DNA of 25,487 nt from a virus (Duplodnaviria; Caudoviricetes), in IMG/VR virus record IMGVR_UViG_3300002091_000110, positions 1 through 25,487 of that record. One strand, written 5' to 3'. Numbering within the stretch: the first letter of the stretch is position 1; each line of letters starts with the position of its first letter. The notes below the pieces were generated by a model. It saw only the letters and a program-made list of their open reading frames with translations. It searched no databases and was not told the DNA's origin. The translations under genes and the position numbers were made by a program. Below, one piece after another: positions 831-18,846 of the stretch.

Positions 831-1118
831 TCAATCGTAGCGGTTCTTGCTGCTACGGCCCTTGGCGGGCGTACCGGCATGGGCAGACGACAGCGGGTTC
901 AGGTTGGACCCCGTGCGGCCACCGGACTTGCGAGCAGCGCGACCGCCGTTCTTGCGAGCAGCCACGCCACCAGCCTTGCGCTCAAGGGCTTCCGTGATCG
1001 GCTCGCCCTTGTTCGTCTTGGTGGACGTGTCCTTGAGATCCTTCTGGAAAGCCTTGTCGCCCTGACCGCCAATCTCGCTGCCGGGCATGGACTTCTTGTT
1101 ACCTTTGCGACCCTTCAT
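831..1118 (-). CDS. Small basic protein with three tandem RKxGG motifs (possible internal virion/DNA-binding protein)
   Basis: 95 aa, K/R-rich, RKAGG-RKNGG-RKSGG; GGAGGA RBS. Confidence 0.7.
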   Translation of the reverse strand: MKGRKGNKKSMPGSEIGGQGDKAFQKDLKDTSTKTNKGEPITEALERKAGGVAARKNGGRAARKSGGRTGSNLNPLSSAHAGTPAKGRSSKNRYD

Positions 1119-1133
1119 TTGATCCTCCTAGGA

Positions 1134-1586
1134 TTACGGGGCGTTGATGGCTTGGATGTACGTCACCACAAGCTGGCTGACACCGGAACCGGTGGAGGCT
1201 GGCTTGTAGAAGATCTGCACATCCGTCGCGCCGACGTTCGCCCAGAGGAGAGCGTTGGCCTGTGTGGTGGGCGGGAACGCCACGTTGCCGACAGCGGTGA
1301 TCGTGCCACCAGTGCCGACGAGTTCAGTAGCGGTCGCAGTCGTGCCGACAGTAAACGTACCGGTCCACGCCGTGGAGACGATAACGTTGATGCCGACAAT
1401 CGTGCTGTAGGCCGGGATGACGATGCTCGTTGTCACCGCGGTCGTGACGGAACCAGACTGAACCTGAGCGGACGACTGCGCCATGACGCAATAGCCGACA
1501 TCAGCCAAGTTCTGCCCCGGCGTGGTGCCCGACGACTGCAAGATGGGACCGGCGATGAGCGGTCCAGTAAAATGAGATGCACCCAT
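1134..1586 (-). CDS. Capsid-associated structural protein
   Basis: 150 aa starting MGASHFTGP, immediately after the capsid gene; AAGGAG RBS. Confidence 0.65.
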   Translation of the reverse strand: MGASHFTGPLIAGPILQSSGTTPGQNLADVGYCVMAQSSAQVQSGSVTTAVTTSIVIPAYSTIVGINVIVSTAWTGTFTVGTTATATELVGTGGTITAVGNVAFPPTTQANALLWANVGATDVQIFYKPASTGSGVSQLVVTYIQAINAP

Positions 1587-1605
1587 CTGGGTACTCCTTT
1601 TTTAA

Positions 1606-1629
1606 GGCCCCCTCATCTCTGAGGGGGCC
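1606..1629 (-). other. Perfect 10-bp hairpin just downstream of the capsid gene
   Basis: GGCCCCCTCA-N4-TGAGGGGGCC; no U-tract follows on the coding strand, so more likely an mRNA-stabilising or pause element than a terminator. Confidence 0.55.
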
Positions 1630-1639
1630 GGGACCATCA

Positions 1640-2551
1640 TTAAGCCGGGAACGAGCCCCAGAGGGCGCGCCAGTTGTAGTAGCCGAAGCTGTAGCGTTCG
1701 TAGCCCTTGACCAGAAGGTTGTCGGTTACGAAATCCACCTGCATGTCGGTTTCGAACTTGATGCGCTCCATGTAGGCGAGGCCGTCGATGTTGGTGAGCA
1801 GCATCCAGTTGCGCGGAGACGTGAGGAAGTCGTTCGTCATGAACGATTCCGGCAGGCCGCCGGCCGTGGTTAGGATTGCATTCACATCGTTGTCCGCGGT
1901 GCCGGGGCGCAGTTCCGTCTTGAGCAGGCGGATGGCCACGGGTTCGATCTGCGGGGGAACGATGAGCTTGCGGGCGCGGGCGAAGACCTTCAGACCGGCC
2001 TGATCCTTGAAGTTCGTGCGGACTGAGATCATCGCATTCAGCAGCGTGGCTTCGTTCAGATCAACGTCGATAGCCGGGCGGTTGGCAACCACGCCGCCGT
2101 CGATGGGATGGGCGGTGGAGCAGAGCGCCACGCCGTCAGCACCGACAGATGCGTTGTAGGTAGTTGCCGTGTTCAGGATCGAAGCCGCGTAGATCTCCTT
2201 CGTCTGCTGGAAGCTTTCGATGAGACCAAGGTTCGACGGGTGGAACTGGGTCTTGTACAGGTTGTCGTCAATCGCCTTGCGGGTGATGCCGTAACCCAGA
2301 CCGATTTCCACATGCTCCTGATTGTAGACGTAGCGTTCGCCAGCGCCGTTGTCGAAAGCGGTCTGACCGCCTTCGGTCTTCAACTGCGCGAGGCCGAGAT
2401 ACCGCATTTCAGCGGTACGTTCCAAGGCCATCTTGGAATCGTGCTTCGTGAAGATCTTGTCGTACTGAGACGGAATCATCTCGTACTTGCCTTCAACTCC
2501 GCGGAGACCGGGGAGCAGGAGGTCTTTGATGGCAGAAAGGTTAACAGCCAT
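1640..2551 (-). CDS. Major capsid protein (Mu gpT-like, HK97 fold)
   Basis: 303 aa; LLLPGL N-terminus, KTEGG, GADGVALCSTAHP, KLIVPP, ERYSFGYYNWRALWGS C-terminus typical of this capsid family; position in the head module. Confidence 0.88.
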   Translation of the reverse strand: MAVNLSAIKDLLLPGLRGVEGKYEMIPSQYDKIFTKHDSKMALERTAEMRYLGLAQLKTEGGQTAFDNGAGERYVYNQEHVEIGLGYGITRKAIDDNLYKTQFHPSNLGLIESFQQTKEIYAASILNTATTYNASVGADGVALCSTAHPIDGGVVANRPAIDVDLNEATLLNAMISVRTNFKDQAGLKVFARARKLIVPPQIEPVAIRLLKTELRPGTADNDVNAILTTAGGLPESFMTNDFLTSPRNWMLLTNIDGLAYMERIKFETDMQVDFVTDNLLVKGYERYSFGYYNWRALWGSFPA

Positions 2552-2565
2552 TGTCCATGCTCCTC

Positions 2566-3534
2566 TTAGATGCCAGCCGTGTTACGCGGCATTGCATTGT
2601 TGAAGCCAACAATGATTGCGTTGTAGCCCGAAGTTGAGTCGTTCCCGTTGATGCTGACCAGCGGGCTGGTCTGACCGGGGATGTAGTTTGCCAGACCGAC
2701 GATGCGGAAAGGCAGGAAGGCGTTCGCCGCAGGACCGGCTGCCGAGTTGGCGATCAGCGAGAACTGGTCCGCGAAGAAGGTGGACTGACCACTCAGCGTA
2801 TTGCCGTTGGTTTCGCCCGTCGCCGTGGAATCGTTGAAGTTGAAGCTGATATTCTGGCCGACCGATGCGAGACCCACAGCCGTGGCCGTGGTGTTCGAAT
2901 TGCCGGTCTGGACGATGAATCGAGCGTTCGGGTCGGTGATGACCTTGCACTGGATGTCGCCCGTGGCACCGGAGCCGGGCCAGTAGGAGAACCACTCCTG
3001 CCGCTTGGTAGCAGCGGAGAGGAACTGGCAGCCGTTGAAGATGCCCGCGATGGGCACGATCACCGTCACAGTGCCGGAAGCAGTGGACGTAGCGCTGATC
3101 GTCGCGCCGCTGTTGGCGACGACGGCCGTGGTCGTGCTGGACGACGTGATGGTATAGACGCCGTTCAGGTTGGCGGATGTTGCCGTCGAACCGTTGATGA
3201 TCAGCGTGGAACCAATCGGAGGTGCCCAAGCATTGGGCGTTGCGGGCGGGGCCGCGCCGCTGGTGGTGGTCGCGCCGGTAAAGGTCACCGTCAGAACACC
3301 GGAGGCGCTGGTGGTGATTGCCGTAGCGCCGACCGTCAGGGTGACGGGGCCGTAGGCCTGAGTGACGTAACCGGTGCCGACACCAGTGGCGCTGGCAGCC
3401 TGCACGACCGGGTCGTTGTTGAAGATCGGGTTGGTATTGCCGTTGGCAATGGCCATCGTGATGATCTCATACGTCGGAGACGATCCGGCACCACTGTACT
3501 GGGAGAACCCGTTCGGCGCGAAAGTGTTCGCCAT
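2566..3534 (-). CDS. Probable capsid cement/decoration protein with a Thr-rich insertion
   Basis: 322 aa; MANTFAPNGF start, IFNNDPV, GIFNGC, VITDPNARFIVQ motifs; directly upstream of the capsid gene. Confidence 0.6.
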   Translation of the reverse strand: MANTFAPNGFSQYSGAGSSPTYEIITMAIANGNTNPIFNNDPVVQAASATGVGTGYVTQAYGPVTLTVGATAITTSASGVLTVTFTGATTTSGAAPPATPNAWAPPIGSTLIINGSTATSANLNGVYTITSSSTTTAVVANSGATISATSTASGTVTVIVPIAGIFNGCQFLSAATKRQEWFSYWPGSGATGDIQCKVITDPNARFIVQTGNSNTTATAVGLASVGQNISFNFNDSTATGETNGNTLSGQSTFFADQFSLIANSAAGPAANAFLPFRIVGLANYIPGQTSPLVSINGNDSTSGYNAIIVGFNNAMPRNTAGI

Positions 3535-3632
3535 AGGTCTATCCTTATTTCAGGGAGGTCTCTAAGGTCGCGCACCGGGGCGACGGAGAACCGGGGATAT
3601 TGTTTTACTTCCCACGCCGGGGGGAAGATTGC

Positions 3633-3664
3633 AGCAATAAGCACCAAAACTGTCGGCAAGTCAA
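3633..3664 (-). promoter_or_regulatory. Putative sigma70-type promoter of the capsid operon
   Basis: TTGACT at 3659-3664 (minus), followed about 17-19 nt later by a weak GCTTATTGC -10; lies just after a terminator. Confidence 0.45.
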
Positions 3665-3684
3665 TATATCGGGATTTTGCATAG

Positions 3685-3714
3685 AAAAAACCCGTGTTTC
3701 ATGTGAAACACGGG
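3685..3714 (-). terminator. Intrinsic terminator whose stem is a parS-like palindrome
   Basis: CCCGTGTTTCA-N2-TGAAACACGGG followed by TTTTTT on the minus strand. Confidence 0.75.
3695..3710. promoter_or_regulatory. parS-like site
   Basis: TGTTTCATGTGAAACA matches 15/16 of the widespread chromosomal parS consensus TGTTTCACGTGAAACA. Confidence 0.5.
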
Positions 3715-3739
3715 CTTCGATTACTTGCTGTCCGGTGGC

Positions 3740-4258
3740 TTATTCTTCGGGAATCGGCACAGCCTCGTAGGACTTCTTCACCTTGGCGAGCGATGTGTCC
3801 TTGTTCTTGCGGTCAAACTGCCCCGGAGGGGCATCATTCAACTGCTGTTCCTTGACACGCACCTGATCCCGCGCCCGTTTCTTGTCGATGGAGCGGACTT
3901 CGTCCGAGATCTCCTGCGGGCGCTCCATCAGGATCATGCCCTTGCGCATGACAACTTCGTCCTTGCTGTCGGCAGGCATCATCTCCGGGTGGCGGCTGGC
4001 AGGCACCGGGGTCCAGCCCACGCGGCGAAGCTGGACCTGATAGGCAGGGTCTTCCTGACCCAGCACCGTGAACCGCTTCCATTCGTAGGACCAGCCGTCC
4101 GGGATCTTGTTCGGGTCCACATAGAAATCGTCGGTGCCCTCATCAAGGTCACCGATGTGCTTCCTGATCTCCTCCGCGCGCTGTTTCGCGGACTTGAGCG
4201 AAGATGTCTTCTTCTTGCTTTCGGCAATCGGGGTTTCGTCTTCCATATTTCTCTCCAT
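3740..4258 (-). CDS. Conserved phage head-module protein (W-K-R...GWxPV type)
   Basis: 172 aa, IPDGWSYEWKR...GWTPVPASRHPE...GMILMERP; TGATG coupling to the upstream gene (alternative start 4246). Confidence 0.7.
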   Translation of the reverse strand: MERNMEDETPIAESKKKTSSLKSAKQRAEEIRKHIGDLDEGTDDFYVDPNKIPDGWSYEWKRFTVLGQEDPAYQVQLRRVGWTPVPASRHPEMMPADSKDEVVMRKGMILMERPQEISDEVRSIDKKRARDQVRVKEQQLNDAPPGQFDRKNKDTSLAKVKKSYEAVPIPEE

Positions 4259-5169
4259 CAGTTGTCTCCGTTGATGCGGCCTTCGCGGATGAGCGCAAGC
4301 CGGTTCTTCGCATACTCTTCGGGCGTCTGGCCCAAGTTCTTGGCGATCTCGCGCATCTCAGGGGTGAGCGTGACCACGTTGCTCTTGGTGCCGCTGCTGT
4401 TCATGTTGCGACTCACCGGGGCCGCCGCGGGAGACGACCGGCGCTGTGCAGGCTTCGATGCCCCCGACATGGGATCATCGCCGCTGTCGCGATGCGGCTG
4501 GTTCTTCACCTGCAGCATGTCTTCGACGTAGCCGAAATACTCATCCGTATCGGCCTCCATGCCATCAGCCAGAGCCATCTGGTGAGCGGCAATCATCTTC
4601 TGGTTCAGGCGCGGGTTCCTGACGTACTCCGGGTGCGCCCGGACCCACGAAGCAGACCGCGGCGTAAGCTGCGAGGCAAAGGCCTCGACAACATCGCTGT
4701 GCTGCGGCTGCTGGGGCGGCTGCGCGGGCTGGCGTGCCTGCGCTTCCATGGCGGCCTTGCCGTTCTCCAGATCCTGCATCTTGGCGGCAATGTCAGCGAT
4801 GCGGTCATTGATCTCCGCGGCTGCATCGAAATCACCGGCCGCCAGCGCCTGACTGTAGGCCGATTTCAGGTTCGCCCGTTCCTGCTTCACGAAATCCAGC
4901 GTGTTGCCGATAAGCTGGTACTGGTTGTTAGCGACCTCGTTGTGCATCTGGTGGGCTTGGTTCGCCGCGTTCTGCGCGCGGTTTTCCGCCTCGACGCGGG
5001 CCTGCCGTTCAAGGTTCAGGCGCTCCTTGAGTTCCTGAATGCCCTCGCGCGGGCTGATCTCGCGCTTCTTCGGCTTGTCGTCGGAAGCATCCTGAATGAC
5101 GACATCGTCACCCTTGGGCGCGGCATCATCCTTCACTTCGATTTCGATTGTCTCGTTGTCTTCGGCCAT
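4258..5169 (-). CDS. Probable capsid scaffolding protein
   Basis: Start re-assigned to ATG 5169 (AAGGAG RBS); acidic N-terminus, long coiled coil, C-terminal LTPEMREIAKNLGQTPEEYAK helix pair. Confidence 0.6.
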   Translation of the reverse strand: MAEDNETIEIEVKDDAAPKGDDVVIQDASDDKPKKREISPREGIQELKERLNLERQARVEAENRAQNAANQAHQMHNEVANNQYQLIGNTLDFVKQERANLKSAYSQALAAGDFDAAAEINDRIADIAAKMQDLENGKAAMEAQARQPAQPPQQPQHSDVVEAFASQLTPRSASWVRAHPEYVRNPRLNQKMIAAHQMALADGMEADTDEYFGYVEDMLQVKNQPHRDSGDDPMSGASKPAQRRSSPAAAPVSRNMNSSGTKSNVVTLTPEMREIAKNLGQTPEEYAKNRLALIREGRINGDN

Positions 5170-5179
5170 TGGTATCTCC

Positions 5180-5566
5180 TTACCAGATGAGATCGGGGTG
5201 AGAAGCGATGCACTGAACCCGGACATCTTCAAGGATCCGGCAGTTTACACCGTTCACGATGAGCGAGTAGCCATCAGATGCACGGAACCCGGCCCATGCG
5301 CCGACTTCCAGCTTGGTGTCGCCAAACCATTCGCGATCCGCGCCCACGTTGACGCCGGTCTTCACGATGAGGCCGATCTTCCCCTGATAGATGTCCTCAT
5401 CGCGGGTCTTGTTCGTGATGATGATGCCACCCTTGGTCTTTTCCGGTCGCAGGTAGATTGCGCACAAAACCTTCGGGCCGATCAGGTTGAATCCTGAAAT
5501 GTCTCCGATCTTGTTGCGCAGATCCTCTGCCGGATCCACTTCATGCATCATAGGCATAATCGACAT
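5180..5566 (-). CDS. groES: GroES/Cpn10-like co-chaperonin
   Basis: Mobile loop EKTKGGIII, GLIVKTG, LEVG, VNGVNCRILED. Confidence 0.8.
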   Translation of the reverse strand: MSIMPMMHEVDPAEDLRNKIGDISGFNLIGPKVLCAIYLRPEKTKGGIIITNKTRDEDIYQGKIGLIVKTGVNVGADREWFGDTKLEVGAWAGFRASDGYSLIVNGVNCRILEDVRVQCIASHPDLIW

Positions 5567-5578
5567 TCTGCTCTCCAG

Positions 5579-5764
5579 TTATCCTTTGTTGATGTTCGAA
5601 ATCGCCTGATCCATAAGATCCAGCGCAGCCCGAAGGCCATCTATCTGTCCCGTCTGCCTCTTGTACTCTGCCATGTCGTTCAAAAGGCCAGCAGCGACAT
5701 CATCGCGAAGCTGTTCGATGCGCGCATCGATAAGCTTGCGCAGTTCTCGTTCAAGTCTCTCCAT
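5579..5764 (-). CDS. Small helical head-module protein
   Basis: 61 aa from ATG 5764 (GGAGAG RBS): MERLERELRKL...YKRQTGQIDGLRAALD. Confidence 0.7.
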   Translation of the reverse strand: MERLERELRKLIDARIEQLRDDVAAGLLNDMAEYKRQTGQIDGLRAALDLMDQAISNINKG

Positions 5765-5766
5765 TT

Positions 5767-5856
5767 TCTCTCCAAGCTCTCCAGCTTTATATGGGGGTGG
5801 AACGCTGGAGAGACATCCCACCCCCACCAACAGGTCAGCGCATGACTACTGACCTG
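5767..5856 (-). promoter_or_regulatory. Structured intergenic RNA: hairpin plus H-type pseudoknot next to the RBS
   Basis: 5831-5838 pairs with 5849-5856; 5818-5826 with 5792-5800; 5804-5812 with 5777-5785. Confidence 0.55.
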
Positions 5857-7830
5857 CTATTCCTCTCTTTTGCGCTTCTGGATCTCCATCTTCGCAAGGC
5901 GACCCATACCGCCGCCACCGCCCCAATGTATGTTTTTATCAATGGCGTTGGGGCCAGAGCGAACCCGGCCACCGGCCTTGCGCCCCATCATGGCAGCCAG
6001 ACCGGGAGGAGGTCCATCCATGGGAGGACCACCAGCGCCCGGCGGCGGGCCACCAGCGCCCATGGGAGGCATCCCCGGCGGCGGTGCGCCCATGGGAGGG
6101 CCACCAGCATCCATGCCCGGCGGCGGGCCGCCTGCCCCCATGGGAGGCATTATAGGCATGGGCGGGATCATGGGCGGCTTGGGTGCCGTGTTGATGTTGA
6201 TGTTGATGTTGGTCTTGCCTTTGCCCTTGGCCTTGGTCTTGCCGCCAGTGGCGCGAGCAACCCGCCCGCCGGTCTTGCGACCCCCGGACATGCCGCCAAT
6301 GTTACGGTCGGCCATGTTCGGTACGCCCATGAGGCCCATCAGGCCTCCCGTGGCACCGTTGTCCTTCATCCCCTGCTTGATGGCCCCCAAGTCGAGAACA
6401 TCGCTCAGGGGGCCGCCGACAGTCTTCTTCGCGCGGCCGCCACGCTTGAGCGGGATGGCATTCGATGTATCGAAGGTCGGGGGCTGATTGTCGCCAAGGG
6501 CTATCATTGCCGGGGGGTTGCTGGCCGCATCCCCCATGCCGGGCAAGCTGCCAGCGTTGAACGTCGGACCGGGGCCACCGGTCACGGGCGGGGGATTGAA
6601 GGCAGGTCCGGGACCGCCGGTCTGCGGAGGTTGGCCACGGCCAAAACCGCCGCGAGGCATAGGCAAGGGCATGGGCGCTTGACCGCGGCCCATGCCGCCC
6701 ATGGCGGGGTTTGAACCGACAGGCGGGTTTCCGCCCATGGTCTGAGGCATGCCGTTGCCGCGCCCCATGCCACCGGCAGGCATCCCCATGCCGCCCATAC
6801 CGCCGCCCTTCCCGCCACCCATGCCCATGCCACCGAGACTGCCGCCGCCAAACTTGGCAACGCGGCCGCCGGTCGGACGGGTGCCGTTGTTGACGTTTTC
6901 CTCGACCTTGCCACCGGCCTTGCGCCCGGTGCGGCCCTTGAGCAGCGAGTGGATCATCGCCGCTTCCTTCTTGCCGATCTTCCGGCCAGAACGGTTCGAA
7001 GAGGCGATGGACTTGTTGACGGCTTCTTCGCTGTAGCGCGGGTTCAGCGCATCCGGCACATCCTCGACATCGCCACCGGAAGCCTTGGCAGGACGACCCT
7101 TGTTATTGCGGAAGCTACGTTCTTGGCGGCTCTGTTCCTGATAATATGAATCCATCGCCTTCGCGTTGCGTGACTTTTGTTTTTTTGCGGCGGAATCATC
7201 CCTTGCCCCCATTGGCAAGGATTCCATGTAATCCTTCAGCTTTTCCTTGCTCCATGAAGAATACTTATCAGCCTCGCCGCCGTCAGCGCGCTTCTTGACG
7301 GCACCGCCGCCGCAGCAGGCCTTGCAGGTGCAGCCTTTTTCGTGGACGGACCCGCCGCGCTTCTTGTTGACGAATTCGTTGGCCGTGCCCATTGCATCGT
7401 CCAGATCGTCGGTGTGCGCGTCGGCCTTCGACAAGTGCTTGCCGTTCTCATAGTGCTTGACCTGATATTCGTTCCAATCAGGGTTCTTGTAGACCTTGGC
7501 CTGCTTGTTCGGGTTCGAACCGGTGACGGTCTTCTTCAGGCGCAGCGGAGTCGAGACGCCGTAGGTGCTGTCATTCTTGGCGCGGCCACCGGAGGCGCGC
7601 GGCTTCTGGCTGGCGTTCTTCTTGCTCGCCACGCCTTCGGCCTTCAGGTTCACCTTGCCGCCGCGCTTGAACGCACGCTTGGAGATCGGGCGAGCGCCAG
7701 TCTTCTGATTGGTCAGCATGACCGGCTCGCGCCAACCGGATGCGTCGATGTCATCCTTGTTGAGGTTCCCGGCACGCCGCTGGGCGCGCTCTTTCATCGC
7801 TCCGCGGGCCTTCTTCGACATCTCGCTCAT
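5857..7830 (-). CDS. Basic, G/P/M-rich low-complexity protein with ~14 xxxGG motifs (probable internal virion polyprotein)
   Basis: 657 aa; AGGAG RBS; FKRGG, RASGG, KKRGG, RADGG, KASGG, RKAGG, RPTGG, LKRGG, RKTGG, RATGG, RKAGG and others. Confidence 0.75.
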   Translation of the reverse strand: MSEMSKKARGAMKERAQRRAGNLNKDDIDASGWREPVMLTNQKTGARPISKRAFKRGGKVNLKAEGVASKKNASQKPRASGGRAKNDSTYGVSTPLRLKKTVTGSNPNKQAKVYKNPDWNEYQVKHYENGKHLSKADAHTDDLDDAMGTANEFVNKKRGGSVHEKGCTCKACCGGGAVKKRADGGEADKYSSWSKEKLKDYMESLPMGARDDSAAKKQKSRNAKAMDSYYQEQSRQERSFRNNKGRPAKASGGDVEDVPDALNPRYSEEAVNKSIASSNRSGRKIGKKEAAMIHSLLKGRTGRKAGGKVEENVNNGTRPTGGRVAKFGGGSLGGMGMGGGKGGGMGGMGMPAGGMGRGNGMPQTMGGNPPVGSNPAMGGMGRGQAPMPLPMPRGGFGRGQPPQTGGPGPAFNPPPVTGGPGPTFNAGSLPGMGDAASNPPAMIALGDNQPPTFDTSNAIPLKRGGRAKKTVGGPLSDVLDLGAIKQGMKDNGATGGLMGLMGVPNMADRNIGGMSGGRKTGGRVARATGGKTKAKGKGKTNINININTAPKPPMIPPMPIMPPMGAGGPPPGMDAGGPPMGAPPPGMPPMGAGGPPPGAGGPPMDGPPPGLAAMMGRKAGGRVRSGPNAIDKNIHWGGGGGMGRLAKMEIQKRKREE

Positions 7831-7851
7831 TGCCGTCTCCTAGCTAGGTGG

Positions 7852-8112
7852 TTACGGGCGTCCCCGTTTGTGCTGCCTTGCAAGATCCACGGCCTTCTGG
7901 ACAGCGTCAGCGCCGAATCGGTGAGTTGGGATGTGATGCTTCGGATGCGCCTTGGCGTGATCCTTCCTGAAATGAACGGCCGGGCCAACCTGCCCGACTT
8001 CTCCATTCCTTGGATACGGCTCGCGATTGTCCGCATGTTCCGTGCTGACAGCATGGAAATTGTGGAACTGGTGGTAGAAGTCTTCCTTGTTCAGTCGCTT
8101 GTCATGCTTCAT
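7852..8112 (-). CDS. His-rich hypothetical protein
   Basis: Start probably ATG 8112 after GGAGAG (ORF extends to 8127); C-terminal DAVQKAVDLARQ. Confidence 0.6.
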   Translation of the reverse strand: MKHDKRLNKEDFYHQFHNFHAVSTEHADNREPYPRNGEVGQVGPAVHFRKDHAKAHPKHHIPTHRFGADAVQKAVDLARQHKRGRP

Positions 8113-8123
8113 CGCTCTCTCCA

Positions 8124-9476
8124 TCACTTCTGCTTGCCGATCATGACCGTGCGATTCGTCGCAACGGTTGGACCCAGCATTACCTTGCCCGTCGTAGGCG
8201 AGATCTTGTCAGACGCATCGCGCTGCCATGTGCCCTTCGGAGTCTTGATCCGGCCCGGATCATACTTGACGAAGAAGCCTTTCGAGTCCTTGTGAGACTC
8301 TTCGATCTTGCCGGTCGCCTTCTTGTTCTTCAAACCAACGATCACGCCATCAGCGCCTTCCGGCTGAATGTCAAGCGGCCTGAAATCATGCGTGTCGCCG
8401 TTGATGACCTTGTAGGTCTTGCCTGTCTCCGTGTCCTTCACGGTGCTGGGCAGATGCTCCTTGTCGGTGAAGGCCATGGCAACATTGTAACCGCCATCCA
8501 GACGACGGCGCATCGATGTCCAGTTGCTGTTCGAGTTGTGGACATCGTCGCCGTTCTCAGCCTTGTGATGCGAAATGCCGGACGACGAATAGGTGTAGTG
8601 GTGATTGGGTGCGATGGGGTCGGTGTTGTTCTTGGTGTAATCGTAGAAAGCCACGTCCGGGTGGTTCTCAATGATCGACTTGTGGACCCGCGGGTTGATG
8701 TCCGACAGCACGTTCAGGCGCACCCCCAGCATGTTGCCGTTTCCGGCGGCCTGATTCTTCGCTTCGGTGATCTCGTCATGCAGCTTGACCGCGAAGCTCT
8801 CTGGATCCCGCAGGAAGGCCAGCGTCTTGCGCAGGCTGTTGAGGCGCGGACCCTTGAATTCGGAAAGATCCTGTCCGCCACCCAGTTTGAAGTAGTTGCC
8901 GGATGTCTTGCCCAGACATTCGTCCTTGCAGGGCGCGGAATTCGGGCAGGTGGTGAACTTTCCTTCTTGGAAAGCAGGCGCGAGAGCCAAACCGGCGGCC
9001 TCAATGCCGCGGCCGTCGTGATATTGCACCGGCTTTTCGCCCTTGTAGCCGTCTTCCGTCTTCATGAGCTTGGCATTCTTGCCCAGCAGCGAAATTGGCT
9101 TGCGATTCTGGTCGCGCCCGACATATTCGGCAACTGCGTTGGCCGCTTTCTGCGAATTTGCAGCCCTTTCGGCCGGGGGGAGCGACAAATGGTGGGTAAT
9201 TGCCCGGTCGAAGGCGTCCGCGAGCATTTTCGTGGTGACTGTGCCCGGCTCCGTCTTCTTGCCGGTCGGAATCGGGATGCTGGACCCCATGCCCATTTGC
9301 GGCGGGGCCACGTTGAACGGCATTCTGGGCCTTAGCGGGGGCTGTGGGCGGTCCAAACCGCCGCCAATGATGGTCCGGGAGGACACATCAGGCATGCCGC
9401 CATCCGCGTATCCACCCCTCTTGCCGGGTTGCCGGGCAAGACGCATCGCTTTTGCAATGGGATCTGCATAATTCAT
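8124..9476 (-). CDS. GP88-family protein with N-terminal extension
   Basis: CPNSAPCKDECL, VRLNVLSD, FYDYTK, NVAMAF, GDTHDFRPLD, IVGLKNK motifs. Confidence 0.75.
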   Translation of the reverse strand: MNYADPIAKAMRLARQPGKRGGYADGGMPDVSSRTIIGGGLDRPQPPLRPRMPFNVAPPQMGMGSSIPIPTGKKTEPGTVTTKMLADAFDRAITHHLSLPPAERAANSQKAANAVAEYVGRDQNRKPISLLGKNAKLMKTEDGYKGEKPVQYHDGRGIEAAGLALAPAFQEGKFTTCPNSAPCKDECLGKTSGNYFKLGGGQDLSEFKGPRLNSLRKTLAFLRDPESFAVKLHDEITEAKNQAAGNGNMLGVRLNVLSDINPRVHKSIIENHPDVAFYDYTKNNTDPIAPNHHYTYSSSGISHHKAENGDDVHNSNSNWTSMRRRLDGGYNVAMAFTDKEHLPSTVKDTETGKTYKVINGDTHDFRPLDIQPEGADGVIVGLKNKKATGKIEESHKDSKGFFVKYDPGRIKTPKGTWQRDASDKISPTTGKVMLGPTVATNRTVMIGKQK

Positions 9477-12226
9477 GACCGGGAACCCGTGTTTCGCGCC
9501 GTCATCATAGCTTTTCTGACCAATTTGTCCACGCCCTCAAGTAAAAGACCAGTAGATCCGCCTTTTGCGTACCCAACTCCACGCCCTTTACCAAAGGGAG
9601 ACCGCAATTGATCCGGGTGAAGAGCAATATAACTGTCCCGCGCCTCCGGGAATTCTGCCTTGAATTCTTCGTCGGACAGCTTGTTCAGCTTGTGGCGCGG
9701 CAAATGATGATTTTCCAGCCGCTTGCTCGCGGCGTGTGGCAGTTCATGCCGGTTCAGGTACACGACACTGTCGCAGCCGTGCTTCCTGATCATGTCGTGG
9801 ATGATCCCGATGGCTTCGTCCTGCCGCTGCTTGGTCAGACGATCATTTCCGCTCCAGACTCCGTCGTCATTTGCGCCCTGCTCCATGTTGGTCAACTGCT
9901 CTTCCAGTGCGGGGTCATGCTTCTCCAACCCCTTCGTAACAAGCTGGCGATAGACGACACTGGGTTCCCACGTTCCGTTGGTGTCTTCCAGCCGAAGCGA
10001 CTTCTTGAATTGCGCATCGACCGGGATGACGCGCGGCGACCGAGTCTTGTTGGCCCGTGGATCGTAATCCATGCGCTTGGCAAATTGATTTGCAGTGTCC
10101 TCGTCGCCCAGATGAACGCCAAGCTGGTCGTGCGAGATGAACGGATCTAGCTCTCCAATCCTGTCCGGGTGATCGGTGCCGTGGAACAGGCGCGGTGGTT
10201 CGAAGTGGACCTCGCCGCCTTCGGCATACTTGCGCGGCGCATCCAGAGTGTCGTGGTGGAAGATCACATAGTTCCGGGTGCCTGCGCCACGCACGCGCGA
10301 GGCTGCATCCAGATACCTGATGCCGGGCACGCCCATCTTGTGCAGATACCTGCTCAGGCGCTCTGCCGAGCCGCCGGAAACCTGTGGTTCAATCCCAGCC
10401 TTGTCTATCACATGGCCATGCATGACGCCGCTGGAGCGATGCAGGATCCGGTGATAGAGATCCCCGCCCCTGAACGGAATGCCGCGGTCATCCTTCTCAG
10501 GAATGCCTTCAGGGAAGAATGGCGCAATGGCCCGCTTCACCTTCTCATGCTGTTCTGCGACGGGCTTGTCCCAATCAAAGAACTCTTCAGGCTTCGCCTT
10601 CACCCGGACATGGTACATGTATCCCTTGGTGGGAAGCTCAAGGTTCTTGCCGCGGATCTCCTTGTCGGCCCACTCCTTCAATTCCTTGCTTGGGAACATC
10701 TGGCCCAGCGCGGAATTGTCCAGCGTGTCATTCGTCAGTTTGGGCGTCCACTTGTCATTGGGATTGTCCGACTGAAACTCAAGGCGCGCCTTCCACAGGC
10801 GATGCAGCACGTCTTCCTTGCTGCTGGGCTGGATTCCGCCCCTGATGATCTTGTGAACAACATCACCAACGGCGAGCTTGGGATCTGCTTTGGCCGCGAG
10901 ATTATTCCTATAGTTCCTTGCCACGTCTTCGCTATCGGCAAAGTAAAGCCCGTGGCCAAACATCTGGTTGCCTTCGCCGGATCCTATCCGGTTGACATCG
11001 AAGCTATCGAAATCATGTGGGCTGCCATGGTACACGTCGAAGCCACCATCATCGTCCACGCCGCCGCCTTCGGCCTTCGTGATGTCGGGATTTTCCGGGG
11101 TAAAGTGTCCACTATTATCGGTGGCATGTTTGATGGCACTTGGATCCAGAACAAAGATTTCTCCCGGTTCACCAATCTCTGAAGTGTCAAGTGCGCGAAT
11201 GCCATTTGCCTTCGCGTAGTGCAATATCTCTTGCTCTGAAATGTCGGGCAGTTCGCGCCCATAGTGCCCTTCTACATCATTGTAGAAGCCCATGATGCTG
11301 GGAAGATTGTCGGATTGAATATAGGCCGGAATTACTGTTGGATTTGGCGCACCACCATCACCGCGGTCATAACGGTTGTGAGCGTAGTTTTCCGCAACAT
11401 CACGATGCCGAGAGAAAGCAATTCCGGGCAATGCCGTTTCGTCGTGTTGGGATGTCCTGAAAACCTTAAAATCACCGTTGGGCGTGCCGTGGTACACAAC
11501 AAGAGGCTTGCCATTCCTGTCTACTACCCGGCTTTTCTTGAACCAATTTTTGAATTCGGGCGTTTCCGTGTGGTCATCCACCTTGCCACCATCCGCATGC
11601 ACCTGCCGCGGCACGCCGGGCATGTACTTCGACGGGTGGATCTGCCCCGGCGCGCGCTTGCGGGCTTCGGCCGCGTGCTTCAGGTCGAGACGGCCGCCGG
11701 TCGATCTCTCCTCGCGCCCTGCAGGCTTCGTGGTGTCCTCATGCTTCAGCCAATCCTTGAACTGGTCGATGCTCATGGGCTTGATCGACTGAATCCGCTG
11801 CGCGCCCTTGCCGTCCGAAAAGCCGCGGATGTAGGTCGCGCGCGCCTGAGCCTCTGATGCAAAGCCCAGCATCACCTTGTGTTCATCGAACTTGCCGGTC
11901 TCCGCGTCCTTCTGATCGACCACATAGACGTGCGACGATGCCGGATCAGGGCCGACGTAGACATCGACGTGGTCGCCGTCCGCGCCTTCGGTGCGCTTGA
12001 TGTAGCCGTAGTGCGCAGGCATGGTCACGGTCCAACGCCTGCCGTTGTGGCCGACGCCAGACCGCTTCCCGCCCTTCACGTTTTCGAGCGCGATGTCGAG
12101 ACCATGAATGCGGACGTGATGCTTCCGGTAATTACCGGCGGCCTTCTGCGCCTCAGTGGGTGCCGCCTGCTTGGCGATAGCCCCGGAGATCTTCAGCGCC
12201 TGCGAGATCTTGTCCGCACCATTCAT
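9473..12226 (-). CDS. Polyvalent protein: inorganic pyrophosphatase-like domain plus three ADP-ribosyltransferase-like (ART-PolyVal-type) domains
   Basis: PTEAQKAAGNY...HYGYI...GADGDHVDV...FDEHKVMLGF (PPase-like); FKNWF...VVDRNGKPLVVYHGT; VYHGSPHDFDSF...GEG...GHGLYF; LFHGT...GVHLG...DSYIAL. Confidence 0.8.
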   Translation of the reverse strand: MNGADKISQALKISGAIAKQAAPTEAQKAAGNYRKHHVRIHGLDIALENVKGGKRSGVGHNGRRWTVTMPAHYGYIKRTEGADGDHVDVYVGPDPASSHVYVVDQKDAETGKFDEHKVMLGFASEAQARATYIRGFSDGKGAQRIQSIKPMSIDQFKDWLKHEDTTKPAGREERSTGGRLDLKHAAEARKRAPGQIHPSKYMPGVPRQVHADGGKVDDHTETPEFKNWFKKSRVVDRNGKPLVVYHGTPNGDFKVFRTSQHDETALPGIAFSRHRDVAENYAHNRYDRGDGGAPNPTVIPAYIQSDNLPSIMGFYNDVEGHYGRELPDISEQEILHYAKANGIRALDTSEIGEPGEIFVLDPSAIKHATDNSGHFTPENPDITKAEGGGVDDDGGFDVYHGSPHDFDSFDVNRIGSGEGNQMFGHGLYFADSEDVARNYRNNLAAKADPKLAVGDVVHKIIRGGIQPSSKEDVLHRLWKARLEFQSDNPNDKWTPKLTNDTLDNSALGQMFPSKELKEWADKEIRGKNLELPTKGYMYHVRVKAKPEEFFDWDKPVAEQHEKVKRAIAPFFPEGIPEKDDRGIPFRGGDLYHRILHRSSGVMHGHVIDKAGIEPQVSGGSAERLSRYLHKMGVPGIRYLDAASRVRGAGTRNYVIFHHDTLDAPRKYAEGGEVHFEPPRLFHGTDHPDRIGELDPFISHDQLGVHLGDEDTANQFAKRMDYDPRANKTRSPRVIPVDAQFKKSLRLEDTNGTWEPSVVYRQLVTKGLEKHDPALEEQLTNMEQGANDDGVWSGNDRLTKQRQDEAIGIIHDMIRKHGCDSVVYLNRHELPHAASKRLENHHLPRHKLNKLSDEEFKAEFPEARDSYIALHPDQLRSPFGKGRGVGYAKGGSTGLLLEGVDKLVRKAMMTARNTGSRS

Positions 12227-12232
12227 GTGGCG

Positions 12233-13006
12233 TCACGAACCCCAAGTGATCTTCAGCGTGCCATGACGCACCTGTCCGTTCGACATCACCTGCACGACCG
12301 GGCCAGACTTGAGCGGGCCGGTCGAGTGGATATGGCCCTTGGCGTCCAGCACGATGGCATCCGACTTCTTGGTCAGGCCCTGCACCGTGAGCAGCGCGGA
12401 ACGGACAGCGCCACCGGCTTTGTAGGGGTGACCGCCGTTGCTACCCTTGTCTCCAGCGTTGCTGTTGTTCTGGCCCGTGTTCCCAAATTCGGACGGACCC
12501 TTCTGCGAGCGGGTCACACCGGCCGGGTTCTCATTATCTCCCCGCGGGTTCCATGCGGGGTCATCTTTGTAAAATCCATTGTCCGCGTTGTAGGGCTTCG
12601 CAGTCGGGTTGCCCTCCATGGATTGGTTGGGCGACGGTGGGTATGTAACCGTGGGCTGCGTGAAGGGGTTGGCCGATGCTGGATACCAGAAATGGGGAAT
12701 CACGGGCTTCGGCGGGGGCGGCGGAACAACTGTCGGCGGAACAACTGTCGGCGGCCGATAGGCGGGAACCGCACGGACGACGGGCGCAGGCGGTGTGTAA
12801 TTGCGCGCCGTGGTGCCGGTCTGGGTGCCGGTGTTGACGCCAAAATTCGCGCCATAGCCGCCGTTGACAGCAGCGCCGCCACCCGGACGACCGCCACCCT
12901 GTCCACCGCCCAGCCCACCATTGGCCGTGCCTCCACCACCATTGTTGATGGATCCACCGCCGCCGCGCCAATCGCTTGAGCCTGATGCGCTGTCCCGTGC
13001 CGACAT
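12233..13006 (-). CDS. Gly/Pro-rich protein with YKAGG motif and small C-terminal domain
   Basis: 257 aa, GAGGAG RBS, starts right after the portal stop codon. Confidence 0.7.
   Translation of the reverse strand: MSARDSASGSSDWRGGGGSINNGGGGTANGGLGGGQGGGRPGGGAAVNGGYGANFGVNTGTQTGTTARNYTPPAPVVRAVPAYRPPTVVPPTVVPPPPPKPVIPHFWYPASANPFTQPTVTYPPSPNQSMEGNPTAKPYNADNGFYKDDPAWNPRGDNENPAGVTRSQKGPSEFGNTGQNNSNAGDKGSNGGHPYKAGGAVRSALLTVQGLTKKSDAIVLDAKGHIHSTGPLKSGPVVQVMSNGQVRHGTLKITWGS
12720..12754. repeat. 15-bp tandem repeat (2.3 copies) encoding PPTVV
   Basis: GGCGGAACAACTGTC x2 plus GGCGG. Confidence 0.85.
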
Positions 13007-13007
13007 G

Positions 13008-15386
13008 TTACTTCTCCTCGCCTTCCGAGTTGGTTTTTGCCATCAATTCGTGAGCGTGCTTGATATGCTCACTCAGGTGATCACGTCCCTGCATCGCCAT
13101 GTCATGCTCGCGTTCTGCCGAAGCCTTGATGCTGTCGCTCTCCAGATCCATCTTCTTCATCGTCACGTCCGACTGCCGGTCGAGATCCCGGTTCTGATCG
13201 TCGGCCGCGGCGCGCTCCTGCTTGAACTGCAGATCCTGTGCCTTGAGATGCAGGCCAATGATCTTTGTCGGATCTTCCTGCGGCGGGGCCAAGCCACCGG
13301 CCGGGGGCTGCTGGGCTTTCAGCAGGTCGGCCTGCGCCTTCACCTGATTGGAACTGGCATTCATCTGGTCTACCGCGGCCTTGGCCTGCGCAGCCTGCGC
13401 CTTGGTGTCGGCCTCCTGATGCTGGATCTTCAGTTCCTCCATGCCCTTCAGGATTTCCGGCGGCGTTTCGTCCTGCTTGTCGGGCGGGGCCATGAACTGT
13501 TCGGGATTGCTCCAGCCAATTGCCGACAGTGCGGCCTTGTCTACTGCGACGGCATCATACAGGTTCGGGTTGGAACTCTGAAGCTGCTTCAGGGCCATGA
13601 TCTTCATCAGGCGCTGGGCGTGGCTGGCGGTGTTCGGATCCGCCTGCGGGACCAGATCAACCTGCTCCAGCGCCGTCAGGAACATCTGCTCATCCCACGG
13701 CATCGTCGGCTTGCGGTTGCGCTGCCAGAAGCTTTCCGGGTTTTCCTTGAAGCAGCGGACGATCAGCGTGAACTCCGCAGCCTGCGCCGCATGCATGCGC
13801 TTGTGGACCGCGTTCAGCACCTTGGCGGCCTGTTCGATCATGGCCAGCGTGGTGCCCACAGGGGCGTCAGGGCGGCCTTCGCCCACCTGAAGCTCCGACG
13901 TACCGCCGACGCGCTGGCCGGTCTGTGCGATGTTCTCCACCAACTGCATGAGGGCGGGGCTGGGTTCCTTGTAAGGCAGCGCCATGATGGCCTGACTGAT
14001 CGGCATGCCGCCGGTCTTCACCAGTGCACCGCCGCCGGGCGGAACCCGGAAGATGTTGGTGTTCTGGCGCGCGCCCGTATCGGCCATGAGGAAGCCGGGG
14101 AAATTCGAGAACATGCCCGCATCCAGAAGCTCGCGCCACGCCGCGGTGATGGCGTTGGTGGTGTTGCCCAGAATGTGGAGCAGGCCAATGTCGTAGAAGC
14201 CCAGACCCGGCACGAAGGTGTACTTGACGAAATTGGCGCGGGCTTCCGGCAGATCCTTGGTGTCTTCGTCGTAGTTGCGGACGATGGACAGAACCTTGCG
14301 GCTCGACACGTCGATGGTCACGCGATACGGAATTTCAAGGCCGGTGACCTTGCCCTTGCGCTTGTGCTGGAAGCCCTTGATGTCCAGTTCGCAGTAGATC
14401 TCATAGATCTCGCGGTCGCGCTCTTCGGGGTTCATGGTCGAGACGGAGACGCCCTGAATCTCGTTCTTCTCCTGCTGGACGCCGTCGAGTGTCGCGGCCA
14501 GCGGCGTGGCCAGATCTTCGTCCTTGTAGATGCCCAAGATCTGCATGCGCTTCACGGTGGACGGCCGCATCATGATGCGATGGGTAATGCGCTTGGCATT
14601 GTCCAAGTCGGTGGCAGATTGATTGACGATCAAGTCACCGGCATCCACGCTTTCGCTCACCGGCCGGTTTCTGATCGGGCAGAAATAGATCTTCTTGAAG
14701 GCCGTGCCACCAAAGCCAAGCATCAGCAGCATGCGGTCGGTGTCGGGGTAGTATTCCGTGGCCGTGCTGGTGAGATAGTGGTTCAGGTCGCGCTCCAGAG
14801 CATTGGCGATCTGGTCGGACTGTTGATTGGCGTTGTTGTTGTCCTCGCGGATCTTGACCGGGCCGTCTGTCGGCAGAAGCTCGCTGCGCGCATTGGCCTG
14901 AAAGCGCAACACGGCCTCCAGCAAAAGCGGGTGCCTCACGTTGCTCATGCCCTCGACCGGCGCGCCTTCCGCGGTGCCCTTCTGAACGGGAACCTCAAGC
15001 TTCAACCCCAGCAGCTTGAGCCCGGTCGCCCGGTTCTCAATCCAATCGTTGCGGCTGGTGATGTCGTCGCGCACGCCGCGGAGCAGTTCTTCGGAGATCC
15101 GCATCAGTTCCATGGCGTCAATATCATCTACTAAATTATCGAACCAATCGCGGTTGCGCGAATTGCTGCCAATGCCGGTGTGGCCCAGCGGCTGGCCGTC
15201 GATGCTGATGGTGAGGGAGCCGTCCGGGTGTTCGATGGACAGGATGTTGCCGGAATCGTCTGTTTCCGGCTGATCTTCGCCTTCGGCCGCATCCTGAATG
15301 GTGATGTCCGTATCGCCAGCCGTCAGCTTTTCCGGCTCAGGATAAACCTGACGAATCGACGGCGACAAGCCCGGCATCATTGGCAT
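13008..15386 (-). CDS. Portal protein
   Basis: 792 aa after terL; HPLLLEAVLRFQA...LLPTDGPVK, GTAFKKIY, PGLGFY, LLDAG, PVGTTLA motifs; coiled-coil C-terminal barrel. Confidence 0.9.
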   Translation of the reverse strand: MPMMPGLSPSIRQVYPEPEKLTAGDTDITIQDAAEGEDQPETDDSGNILSIEHPDGSLTISIDGQPLGHTGIGSNSRNRDWFDNLVDDIDAMELMRISEELLRGVRDDITSRNDWIENRATGLKLLGLKLEVPVQKGTAEGAPVEGMSNVRHPLLLEAVLRFQANARSELLPTDGPVKIREDNNNANQQSDQIANALERDLNHYLTSTATEYYPDTDRMLLMLGFGGTAFKKIYFCPIRNRPVSESVDAGDLIVNQSATDLDNAKRITHRIMMRPSTVKRMQILGIYKDEDLATPLAATLDGVQQEKNEIQGVSVSTMNPEERDREIYEIYCELDIKGFQHKRKGKVTGLEIPYRVTIDVSSRKVLSIVRNYDEDTKDLPEARANFVKYTFVPGLGFYDIGLLHILGNTTNAITAAWRELLDAGMFSNFPGFLMADTGARQNTNIFRVPPGGGALVKTGGMPISQAIMALPYKEPSPALMQLVENIAQTGQRVGGTSELQVGEGRPDAPVGTTLAMIEQAAKVLNAVHKRMHAAQAAEFTLIVRCFKENPESFWQRNRKPTMPWDEQMFLTALEQVDLVPQADPNTASHAQRLMKIMALKQLQSSNPNLYDAVAVDKAALSAIGWSNPEQFMAPPDKQDETPPEILKGMEELKIQHQEADTKAQAAQAKAAVDQMNASSNQVKAQADLLKAQQPPAGGLAPPQEDPTKIIGLHLKAQDLQFKQERAAADDQNRDLDRQSDVTMKKMDLESDSIKASAEREHDMAMQGRDHLSEHIKHAHELMAKTNSEGEEK

Positions 15387-17433: not shown

Positions 17434-17692
17434 TGAATATGTCCTGTATTTCTTCATGGGTTGCGCCGTGAAAGACAATCGGCGTGCCCGGTCCAAACCA
17501 CGCCTCTTCGATCTTTTCCGCCATCTCTATGGCGTCATTCAGGGTGGCCTTGTGCATCTTCATGAGGATCTTCACCACCTTCAGGAAGTCGTAGATCAGG
17601 ATCACCTGCCCCGCCCGTATCGCGTAGCCCGTGATGGCCTCCCGCATGTTGGCTATCTCCAGTGTGTCGGGATTGGTCAGCGGTCTGTCCAT
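17405..17692 (-). CDS. Hypothetical protein
   Basis: 95 aa, AAGGAAGAG upstream, packed in the gene array. Confidence 0.6.
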   Translation of the reverse strand: MDRPLTNPDTLEIANMREAITGYAIRAGQVILIYDFLKVVKILMKMHKATLNDAIEMAEKIEEAWFGPGTPIVFHGATHEEIQDIFNVGKPSTIN

Positions 17693-18245
17693 GCTCTTCC
17701 TTGGGCTTCGGCAGCGGCATGAAGGCAGGGCCGTCGAATCCCCATGCGTACCAGCTTACATCCATAGTCGGATTTCCCTGCCCTGTCACGTCGATGCGAA
17801 ATGTCAGCGGCAGGACTCGGCTGGGCGGTGCATCCGCAAACAGGTCCAGCCTGCTGGCCGCATTCCAGTAATTCACCTTGAGCAGCAGCACGACCTGCGG
17901 TGTCAGGGACAGCGCCCGGCGGATGAAAGCTTCCGCCAGACTGAACGGCGGGTTGGTCACGATGGCAAAGCCGCCGGTCGATTTCACCGTGAAGCTCTGG
18001 TTGGGCTTCACGAAGTCGATCTTGGCGGCCCCCTCCATGCGCGGTTCGATGTCGGAGCAGGTCACGGTGTGCCCGTGCTGCTCCAAAACACGCGCCAGAG
18101 CGCCGTCACCGCAGGCAGGCTCCCAGATGCGCTTCGGAAGGTCCAAGGCCCGCCGCATCGCCTCCGTAGCCGCCCACGGCGTCGGGTAGAAATCACCGGC
18201 ACGGCGCTTGCCGTTGCCACCGGCCATGGCCGCGCCGACGTTCAT
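17535..18245 (-). CDS. Phage DNA amino (N6-adenine-type) methyltransferase
   Basis: DFYPTP, WEPACGDG (motif I), SDI, IVTNPPF (motif IV); start re-assigned to ATGA overlap at 18245. Confidence 0.85.
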   Translation of the reverse strand: MNVGAAMAGGNGKRRAGDFYPTPWAATEAMRRALDLPKRIWEPACGDGALARVLEQHGHTVTCSDIEPRMEGAAKIDFVKPNQSFTVKSTGGFAIVTNPPFSLAEAFIRRALSLTPQVVLLLKVNYWNAASRLDLFADAPPSRVLPLTFRIDVTGQGNPTMDVSWYAWGFDGPAFMPLPKPKEEHGQTADQSRHTGDSQHAGGHHGLRDTGGAGDPDLRLPEGGEDPHEDAQGHPE

Positions 18246-18469
18246 GCGCCGCCCTTTGGCATAGGCAGCATCAGGACCGGACCCTGCGCGAAGTATGCCT
18301 TGTTCGCGTCGGGCCATGCATTGAGGACAGCGGCAAGTGCCACCGCAGCGTCTTCCTCCATCGTCTTGCCCGTCGCGCCGTTGAAGGCGTCAACGAACAG
18401 GCTCATGAGGCCGGGCATCTTCAACAGATCCGCGGCGGTCGCCATGGGTGCCGGTGGTGAGATTGTCAT
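18242..18469 (-). CDS. Hypothetical protein (AWP...LP family paralogue)
   Basis: 75 aa, ATGA overlaps on both sides. Confidence 0.65.
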   Translation of the reverse strand: MTISPPAPMATAADLLKMPGLMSLFVDAFNGATGKTMEEDAAVALAAVLNAWPDANKAYFAQGPVLMLPMPKGGA

Positions 18470-18846
18470 GCTTCCTCCTTCTTGACGCTCACTGGCGTCG
18501 GTAGTCCCAGAATCTTCGCAATCTGGATCAGCTTGGGCAGGTCGCGCAAATGTTCAACCTGCCGGGTGATGCTGTAGCGATGCTCCGACAGAAACTTTTC
18601 CATCTCGCCGCAGGCGCTGCGGCCTGAACTGTAGCCATTCTCGCCGCGACCACCGCCGCCATCGCGGCGGAATTCAAAGCCGTCCACATATTCATAATCT
18701 GTCGTCGTCGTGAAATAGACGCGGGCAATCTTGGTGACGGTCTGCAGCGTCCATGTCTTGTTATTACGATGCCTATCCGTCATCACCCACACCCTGTCGC
18801 CCACCTTGATGTCGGCAACGTAGTCCACTGTCGCGTGATCAGTCAT
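18466..18846 (-). CDS. Hypothetical protein, SH3/KOW-like beta-barrel N-terminus
   Basis: IKVGDRVWV...TVTKIARVYF; GAGG RBS before ATG 18846. Confidence 0.6.
   Translation of the reverse strand: MTDHATVDYVADIKVGDRVWVMTDRHRNNKTWTLQTVTKIARVYFTTTTDYEYVDGFEFRRDGGGGRGENGYSSGRSACGEMEKFLSEHRYSITRQVEHLRDLPKLIQIAKILGLPTPVSVKKEEA

Follow-up and report, generated by a model that had tools for sequence, protein, structure and literature searches.

What does a short peptide with two glycines do in the head-region genes of a tailed phage, where about 20 copies are spread over five proteins? The question is raised by the window analyzed here, i.e., the whole stretch of DNA, which is a linear virus record of 25,487 bases that is 42% complete. 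Judged by sequence, the phage is related to HTVC023P. Its major capsid protein, which finds matches in about 1500 viral stretches, is 85% identical to that of MW202675 and 38% identical to the capsid of Pelagibacter phage HTVC023P, and identities of 36-38% are seen across HTVC023P, HTVC027P, CRP-901 and Pag-Yong1. The minus strand carries, in order, terS, small genes, terL, the portal gene, four cargo-slot ORFs with a 91-aa ORF, an 83-aa ORF, GroES, a likely scaffold gene, two unknown genes, the major capsid gene and ORFs of 150, 95 and 113 aa, and the sequence stops short of the tail genes. We infer a short tail from SU10-type portal and adaptor matches and from a transglycosylase-bearing gene behind the tail genes in the complete relative G004. 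The features are listed below, with arrows marking the bond at which a cut is considered.

13008..15386, minus strand: portal protein, SU10-type; upstream edge of the cargo slot
12233..13006, minus strand: 257-aa Gly/Pro-rich ORF directly after the portal gene; one motif, then a short amphipathic segment
12410-12424, minus strand: motif Y↓KAGGAV of the 257-aa ORF, at the equivalent place in relatives L007 and L019
9473..12226, minus strand: 917-aa polyvalent protein; five motifs at residues 174, 210, 384, 667 and 886
11693..11707, minus strand: motif R↓STGG of the 917-aa protein, after InPase
11585..11599, minus strand: motif H↓ADGG of the 917-aa protein, before ART-PolyVal
11063..11077, minus strand: motif K↓AEGG of the 917-aa protein, after ART-PolyVal
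10214..10228, minus strand: motif Y↓AEGG of the 917-aa protein, opening a module that is missing in L007 and lies elsewhere in L002
9557..9571, minus strand: motif Y↓AKGG of the 917-aa protein, 32 residues from the C-terminus and followed by a basic amphipathic end segment
8124..9476, minus strand: 450-aa GP88 protein (PF17338 at residues 131-390); N-terminal amphipathic segment, then a motif
9396-9410, minus strand: motif Y↓ADGG of GP88, behind the N-terminal amphipathic segment
12226-12170, 9476-9420 and 9530-9473: basic amphipathic end segments, also present in many relatives' cargo-slot proteins
7852..8127, minus strand: 91-aa ORF, motif-free; C-terminus resembles that of large cargo proteins in L001, L002 and L019
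5857..7830, minus strand: 657-aa basic Gly/Pro/Met-rich protein; 10-12 motifs
5180..5566, minus strand: GroES-like co-chaperonin; downstream edge of the cargo slot
4258..5232, minus strand: 324-aa likely scaffold, a call based on its place and composition; motif-free, as are 77 homologues
1640..2551, minus strand: major capsid protein
831..1118, minus strand: 95-aa basic protein encoded behind the capsid gene; carries three motifs at a spacing of 8 residues
966-980, 942-956 and 918-932, minus strand: motifs of the 95-aa protein

Several neighboring genes are of separate interest. Between terS and terL, the window holds a methyltransferase-like gene (17535-18317) and a ProQ-C-like gene (18466-18936). 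The terminase large subunit is 895 aa long in L007 (L007:490-3177) and 552 aa long in the window; the extra length suggests an inserted element, for instance an intein. G004 encodes an Acb2/Tad1-type hairpin protein between terL and portal (L167:12392-12655) as well as a TerB-family gene (L165:7915-8367).

Conservation and Distribution of the Motif

The motif reads [R/K/Y/F/H]-[A/K/S]-x-G-G-x-[V/A/T/I/L], where the glycine pair is the most invariant part and the residue preceding A/K is highly mixed (R, K, Y, F, H, M). A first-pass annotation of the window had reported about 25 copies in five proteins, at coordinates which all match the sequence; the array is real, and the number was slightly high since the annotation's own pattern yields 20 matches. 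About 2.1 are expected from 5000 composition-preserving shuffles of each ORF, and a variant pattern finds 22 matches compared with 4.6 in shuffles. The 20 matches comprise two in the 257-aa ORF (one of them Gly-rich noise), four in the 917-aa protein, none in GP88, 12 in the 657-aa protein and two in the 95-aa protein. Individually, the 657-aa (0 of 5000 shuffles), 917-aa (p 0.002) and 95-aa (p 0.004) proteins are enriched. Enrichment is unclear for GP88 and the 257-aa protein alone (p 0.03-1, depending on the pattern), and their copies recur at the equivalent place in relatives. As the annotation had stated, terL, portal and capsid carry no arrays: terL, the scaffold and a 322-aa protein of the window have zero matches, and portal, capsid and GroES have a single isolated match each.

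The same enrichment is found in syntenic phages. The sample consists of 142 fetched loci, 53 of which span the region from portal to GroES or scaffold and encode 108 proteins of at least 150 aa, corresponding to 87 distinct sequences. These 87 proteins contain 321 motifs compared with 20.4 +/- 4.6 in shuffles, and 71 of them have at least one, with the reservations that related genomes are not independent samples and that the pattern was refined after inspection of the data; an unfiltered count of GG pairs agrees. Three residues upstream of 853 isolated GG pairs, Arg (186), Tyr (58) and Phe (56) occur at about three times background. Homologues of the 95-aa protein have the motif in 30 of 30 cases, with 91 copies compared with 2.3 expected.

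Outside these genes, no motif is found in 77 scaffold homologues, and terminases have two in 42 (3.2 expected). Capsid proteins of the relatives show 58 in 75, apparently a single inherited site, GroES proteins 14 in 70, which stem from the GroES loop, and portals 24 in 75 (9.2 expected), so that the signal is not wholly missing from the shell genes. The portals of the two closest relatives (L001:10001-12376 and L002:10001-12376) carry a good copy toward the C-terminus, at residue 696, and the window portal has no counterpart of it. In five near-complete relatives, the motif clusters in the cargo slot, in the 95-aa-type gene, in one gene behind the tail genes and in large ejection-type genes behind that. 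Across 160 further loci, the post-tail gene and the genes downstream of it show an excess (125 compared with 43 and 122 compared with 42 expected), whereas upstream of it no excess is seen (43 compared with 37; 13 compared with 29).

The excess over shuffles rules out chance arising from Gly-richness. Furthermore, the glycines of the 321 copies are encoded by 14 different codon pairs; since both Gly codons vary, selection acts on the peptide and not on the DNA, and a DNA repeat or recombination site is ruled out as the nature of the motif. The motif is a real, enriched element lying between domains and at swap points and confined to cargo-slot, 95-aa-type and ejection-type genes. Full-text literature searches, whose coverage leaves out most subscription papers, found no paper describing the motif or the module introduced below.

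Motifs at the Borders of Exchangeable Modules

The 917-aa protein illustrates how the motifs relate to domains. Pfam assigns an InPase domain to residues 25-161 (PF18823, E 3e-53) and an ART-PolyVal domain to residues 236-375 (PF18760, E 1e-24; a second Pfam stretch of the latter extends beyond these residues), and further modules lie at about 385-667 and 668-886. All five motifs fall outside the InPase and ART-PolyVal stretches, which bears out the earlier description of the copies as linkers. Residues 662-890 are missing from L007 and are found at 43-272 of an L002 protein, and two motifs flank the segment each time.

This arrangement is general among the relatives. In 13 Pfam-matched cargo proteins, which are mutually related, none of 37 motifs lies inside a Pfam stretch (8.2 expected). 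The internal BLAST borders of 36 folded cargo proteins comprise 91 starts and 91 ends; 36 of the starts and 41 of the ends fall within 15 residues of a motif, where about 10 each are expected; this excess is somewhat overstated because the conservation of the motif itself draws BLAST ends toward it. Both results agree with the first-pass annotation's placing of the motifs at domain boundaries.

Motifs also have a preferred place near chain ends. In 44 of 63 proteins (17.1 expected), a stretch of 15-45 residues separates the last one from the C-terminus. A second shared element, the basic amphipathic segment, occupies 16 of 93 N-termini (0.4 expected) and seven C-termini (0.7 expected). The segment is possibly the real loading signal. 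The helical domain at the N-terminus of the module protein described below is similar to it. In GP88 the motif follows such a leader, as previously noted, and in the relative G001 a similar GP88 module stands behind two motifs inside a fused protein of 1780 aa. The neighboring 91-aa ORF looks like a detached tail left behind when GP88 entered the slot, and an ORF of the same size and start is present in L007.

In the 657-aa protein, whose counterparts in relatives have 6-16 motif copies, every piece between motifs is net positive (+1 to +9). Its residues 100-175 (window about 7530-7300) comprise a small PHROG 7884 domain (100-157) between two motifs, followed by a Cys-rich stretch, and relatives of the protein keep a K-A-C-G-G variant near this domain.

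Position of a Possible Cut

The tail ruler of phage T5 provides the sole published cut at this motif. Tape measure protein pb2 reads R1127-A-E-G-G, and work that combined proteomics with LC-ESI-TOF put its maturation cut behind R1127 (Linares et al., 2023, PMC10038345), which leaves a C-terminal piece of 92 residues from A1128. The site is disputed, as R1127 is also a trypsin site and an earlier study gave V1148 (PMC11937520). The cut precedes A-x-G-G, which puts the glycines on the far side of the scissile bond. Because the motif matches this reported site, the motif-bearing proteins are likely polyproteins cut before Ala/Lys. A G-E-x-G-x-E-V-V stretch lies behind the R1127 motif.

A similar arrangement is found in phage lambda, where gpH reads F733-A-T-G-G followed by a GEFV stretch, with a second motif copy at 778. 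A piece of about 14 kDa is removed from gpH to give gpH* of about 78 kDa, and site and catalyst are stated to be unknown (PMC12617516, 2025). A predicted cut at 733 would yield products of 79.8 and 12.5 kDa, which are near the reported masses and at the upper end of the modelled range. The lambda stretch has matches in 992 phage records, and among the 40 matches listed, the annotated ones are tape measures. For phage JBD30, a cut is predicted only (PMC11445458).

In crAss001, cargo protein gp45 contains about eight motifs, and its crAss-like homologues have 3-12 copies of a loose pattern in 32 of 32 examined. A portal-bound domain of gp45 was resolved at residues 425-552, docked on the portal wing (Bayfield et al., 2023, PMC10172136). 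Residue 425 is the Ala of N424-A-F-G-G and the next motif runs from 559, so the domain fills the interval between two motifs. The authors take gp45 as a continuous intact chain, and the main text describes no cleavage and lacks the words protease and proteolytic (PMC10172136). The four gp45 peptide regions named in that paper span no motif and are not decisive either way (PMC10172136). A motif within a fold would likewise begin the ordered density, which counts against reading residue 425 as a cut end. In each of two crAss-like cargo genes (L380 and L381:4001-4360), a conserved domain is interrupted by two in-frame stops, which suggests that a stop codon is recoded.

The GE[FY]V Module

The post-tail gene of the relatives encodes an unnamed module which consists of the motif, followed by G-x-G-x-x-x-x-D-x-x-P and then by G-E-[FY]-V and helices. 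The gene is located right upstream of the ejection genes and after the tail genes; it is absent from the window record, which is 42% complete. One relative's copy of the gene lies at L146:1300-1857. The module is found in ten relatives, namely all five close relatives (two copies each), MW202675 and four isolate genomes with one copy each (Pag-Yong1, HTVC023P, HTVC027P and DSL-LC04). The two-copy and one-copy types are homologous (95%). Alignments A1 and A2 show no variation in the Asp and the Glu; of the tandem pair, copy 1 retains the Asp and copy 2 the Glu, the first copy having Ser in place of Glu. A module profile matched 13,706 protein clusters. In the tape measure of mycobacteriophage Douge (L256:2163-7262), two copies of motif plus module (at about 964 and 1412) occur in one protein.

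The motif excess is strong in the module-bearing genomes G001-G005, MW202675, HTVC027P and DSL-LC04 and slight in HTVC023P and Pag-Yong1. The module was not found in CRP-901 (no motif, 2.7 expected) or MW202796 (one motif, 1.2 expected), which show no motif excess, nor in QDWS535, which has four motifs where 1.3 are expected and Gly/Met-rich ejection-type genes. These three absences carry little weight, since lambda too escaped the A2 profile. G006-G009, the closest relatives, are represented by fragments of 33-71% completeness, and the missing module match there has no bearing on its presence.

No Pfam family covers the module, NCBIfam gives only a single chance-level match, and sequence searches of solved structures found none. 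Alignment of A2 with the lambda gpH stretch by hhalign gives a weak match (36.5%, E 3.7e-4) and further weak matches link the module to tape measures, while the comparison with T5 is not significant (1.5%). A lead from the ESM Atlas (0.77) points to crAss_CARG1/PF25725, for which there is no Pfam match and no significant hhalign result. The two-copy protein is modelled with a pLDDT of 80 and the single-copy form with a pLDDT of 60 (best Z 2.5), a difference that gives a hint of a dimeric unit. Within the model, the region holding the module's own motif (residues 44-54) is of low confidence. Fold searches with the two-copy model gave no PDB match at E <= 0.001, the VIA rows covering the N-terminal helices only, and returned uncharacterised phage proteins only from BFVD. 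These searches found no protease fold for the module and equally show no new fold.

By its distribution and invariant residues, the GE[FY]V module is the best candidate for an enzyme or a receptor acting on the motif. That it is the catalyst can be proposed tentatively.

Another enzyme was considered and rejected. A SprT-like zincin is the only peptidase in a Pfam scan of the 97 ORFs of G004, which also contains no prohead protease family. The zincin is present in G003, G004, G005 and MW202675 and absent from G001, G002, G006 and all five isolate genomes, four of which bear the module. Being patchy among motif-bearing relatives, it does not track the motif. Its gene lies upstream of the terminase genes in G004 (L167:15605-16285) and likewise in G003 and G005, with a further occurrence at L142:1-421. 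In the cleavage of a T5 tail protein, the host factor involved is reportedly groE. The title of a work in the reference list of PMC12617516 refers to host involvement in this cleavage.

A Model of Cargo Processing and Its Alternatives

The cargo-slot proteins are likely packed in the head and injected, as suggested by gene position and by the description of polyvalent proteins (PMC5512222). On balance, the joints between their modules are probably cut just before A/K/S and not after the two glycines. The basic amphipathic end segments may first carry the proteins into the prohead, where a protease that recognizes A/K-x-G-G on the primed side (P1'-P4') would cut the joints and trim the end segments. 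Such cutting would divide the 917-aa protein into pieces of 174, 36, 174, 283, 219 and 31 residues and release net-positive peptides from the 657-aa and 95-aa proteins. The InPase, ADP-ribosyltransferase-like and GP88 modules would then enter the host as small units, while the Lys/Arg-rich pieces of the 657-aa and 95-aa proteins would remain with the DNA. The GE[FY]V module, which itself begins with a motif, would be the most likely enzyme.

Alternatively, as the first-pass annotation had also suggested with its docking signal, the motif may be an uncut docking or hinge peptide. Its partner would be the GE[FY]V module, the portal or a neighboring cargo protein, the binding would serve to load the proteins and set the order of ejection, and the chains would leave whole. 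This is the foremost alternative, though a less probable one. The motif-initial domain of crAss001 gp45 is docked on the portal wing and its authors assume an intact chain (PMC10172136), the tandem copies of the 95-aa protein, 8 residues apart, suit avid binding, the position before A/K is variable and a C-terminus follows some copies within 10 residues. Yet the T5 maturation cut maps to this very register, and the copies sit at nearly every internal joint, beyond what a tag needs. The packaged crAss001 proteins gp46, gp49 and the examined part of gp50 are without a motif and gp47 has one weak match, so that the motif is not a general address; the separate conserved end segments could act as one.

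A preferred flexible linker, or a trace of recombination seams with no partner protein, would account for module swaps that do stop at motifs in proteins with 10-19% Gly. It is improbable in view of an excess of about 16-fold over composition-matched shuffles, the fixed preferences three positions before and two after GG, the variation of both Gly codons and the identical string in crassvirus cargo and tape measures.

The first-pass annotation had read the motifs as sites cut after both glycines by a cysteine protease of the Ulp1/adenain/pS273R type. Clan CE proteases have this GG↓X specificity, and no part of the motif is more fixed than GG. The conserved protein-level signal at module borders and the polyprotein reading find support, whereas this bond and this enzyme are very unlikely. 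What is seen in T5 and crAss001 favors the bond located two residues ahead of GG. The search for a clan CE peptidase that the annotation had called for was negative for Peptidase_C48 (PF02902) in five related genomes, four of them at least 90% complete, and for any clan CE family by Pfam among the 97 ORFs of G004 and 26 window proteins, the adenain family being covered by these two Pfam scans only.

Mimicry of the GroES mobile loop that recruits host GroEL to keep the cargo unfolded, to which the adjoining phage GroES gene and the fit of the window GroES (K-T-K-G-G-I-I) to the pattern would lend themselves, can practically be discarded, as the cargo copies have R/K directly after GG (49%) and not the hydrophobic triplet that matters for GroES loop function, and motif excess is slight or missing in the GroES-bearing phages CRP-901, QDWS535 and MW202796.

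Relation to Known Systems and Significance

The proposed cleavage before A/K/S has its closest parallel in T5 pb2, which is processed to pb2* and the 92-residue pb2C, a region assigned muralytic activity (PMC10038345). R1127↓A-E-G-G corresponds in string and register to K↓AEGG and Y↓AEGG of the window, but it is one site in a siphophage tail protein compared with about 20 in five head-region proteins here. Lambda gpH shares the X-A-x-G-G string (F733-ATGG) and the GEFV stretch, its match to the cut being a prediction. In the relatives of this phage group, the module is a separate gene. The C1 protein of crAss001 (gp45, PF25725) has a comparable motif array in a virion-internal protein.

By domain content, the 917-aa protein is a member of the phage polyvalent class, with InPase and ART-PolyVal in one chain among late genes. 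Its gene lies between portal and GroES/scaffold, and domain sets differ in L001, L002, L009, L107 and L142. For polyvalent proteins, processing into single units by an MPTase zincin has been proposed (Iyer et al., 2017, PMC5512222); the available text of that study mentions no junction motif and lacks the word glycine. The MPTase domain, which is frequent but not universal in the class, was not detected by Pfam in the 917-aa protein or in 28 related proteins.

Prohead-protease processing in T4, phiKZ and SPN3US (gp21, gp175 and gp245) is similar in that short recurring motifs occur in head-internal and ejection proteins and leaders are removed. These proteases cleave behind Glu, and shell or scaffold proteins are among their substrates. 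Here, in contrast, the 77 scaffolds are motif-free and G004 has no prohead protease family. The clan CE enzymes adenain, ASFV pS273R and Ulp1 share the two glycines and the polyprotein logic, but no such enzyme was found in the relatives or the window by the searches above, and the evidence favors another bond.

As a broader, speculative proposal, tailed phages in general may use GE[FY]V as a single small undescribed peptidase module that cuts before A-x-G-G. In siphophage tape measures it would work in cis (lambda gpH* F733↓A734, T5 pb2* R1127↓A1128). In HTVC023P-related phages and crassviruses it would work in trans, from the portal, and the motif there would serve as a plug-in junction at which any effector domain can be added to a cargo polyprotein and released singly. 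If true, one processing rule would apply to the injected proteins of very abundant aquatic phages and of crassviruses, and lambda gpH cleavage would gain an exact site and a candidate catalyst. It would also show how polyvalent proteins without MPTase split and why their modules exchange freely, and it would provide a sequence marker to find and delimit injected phage effectors.
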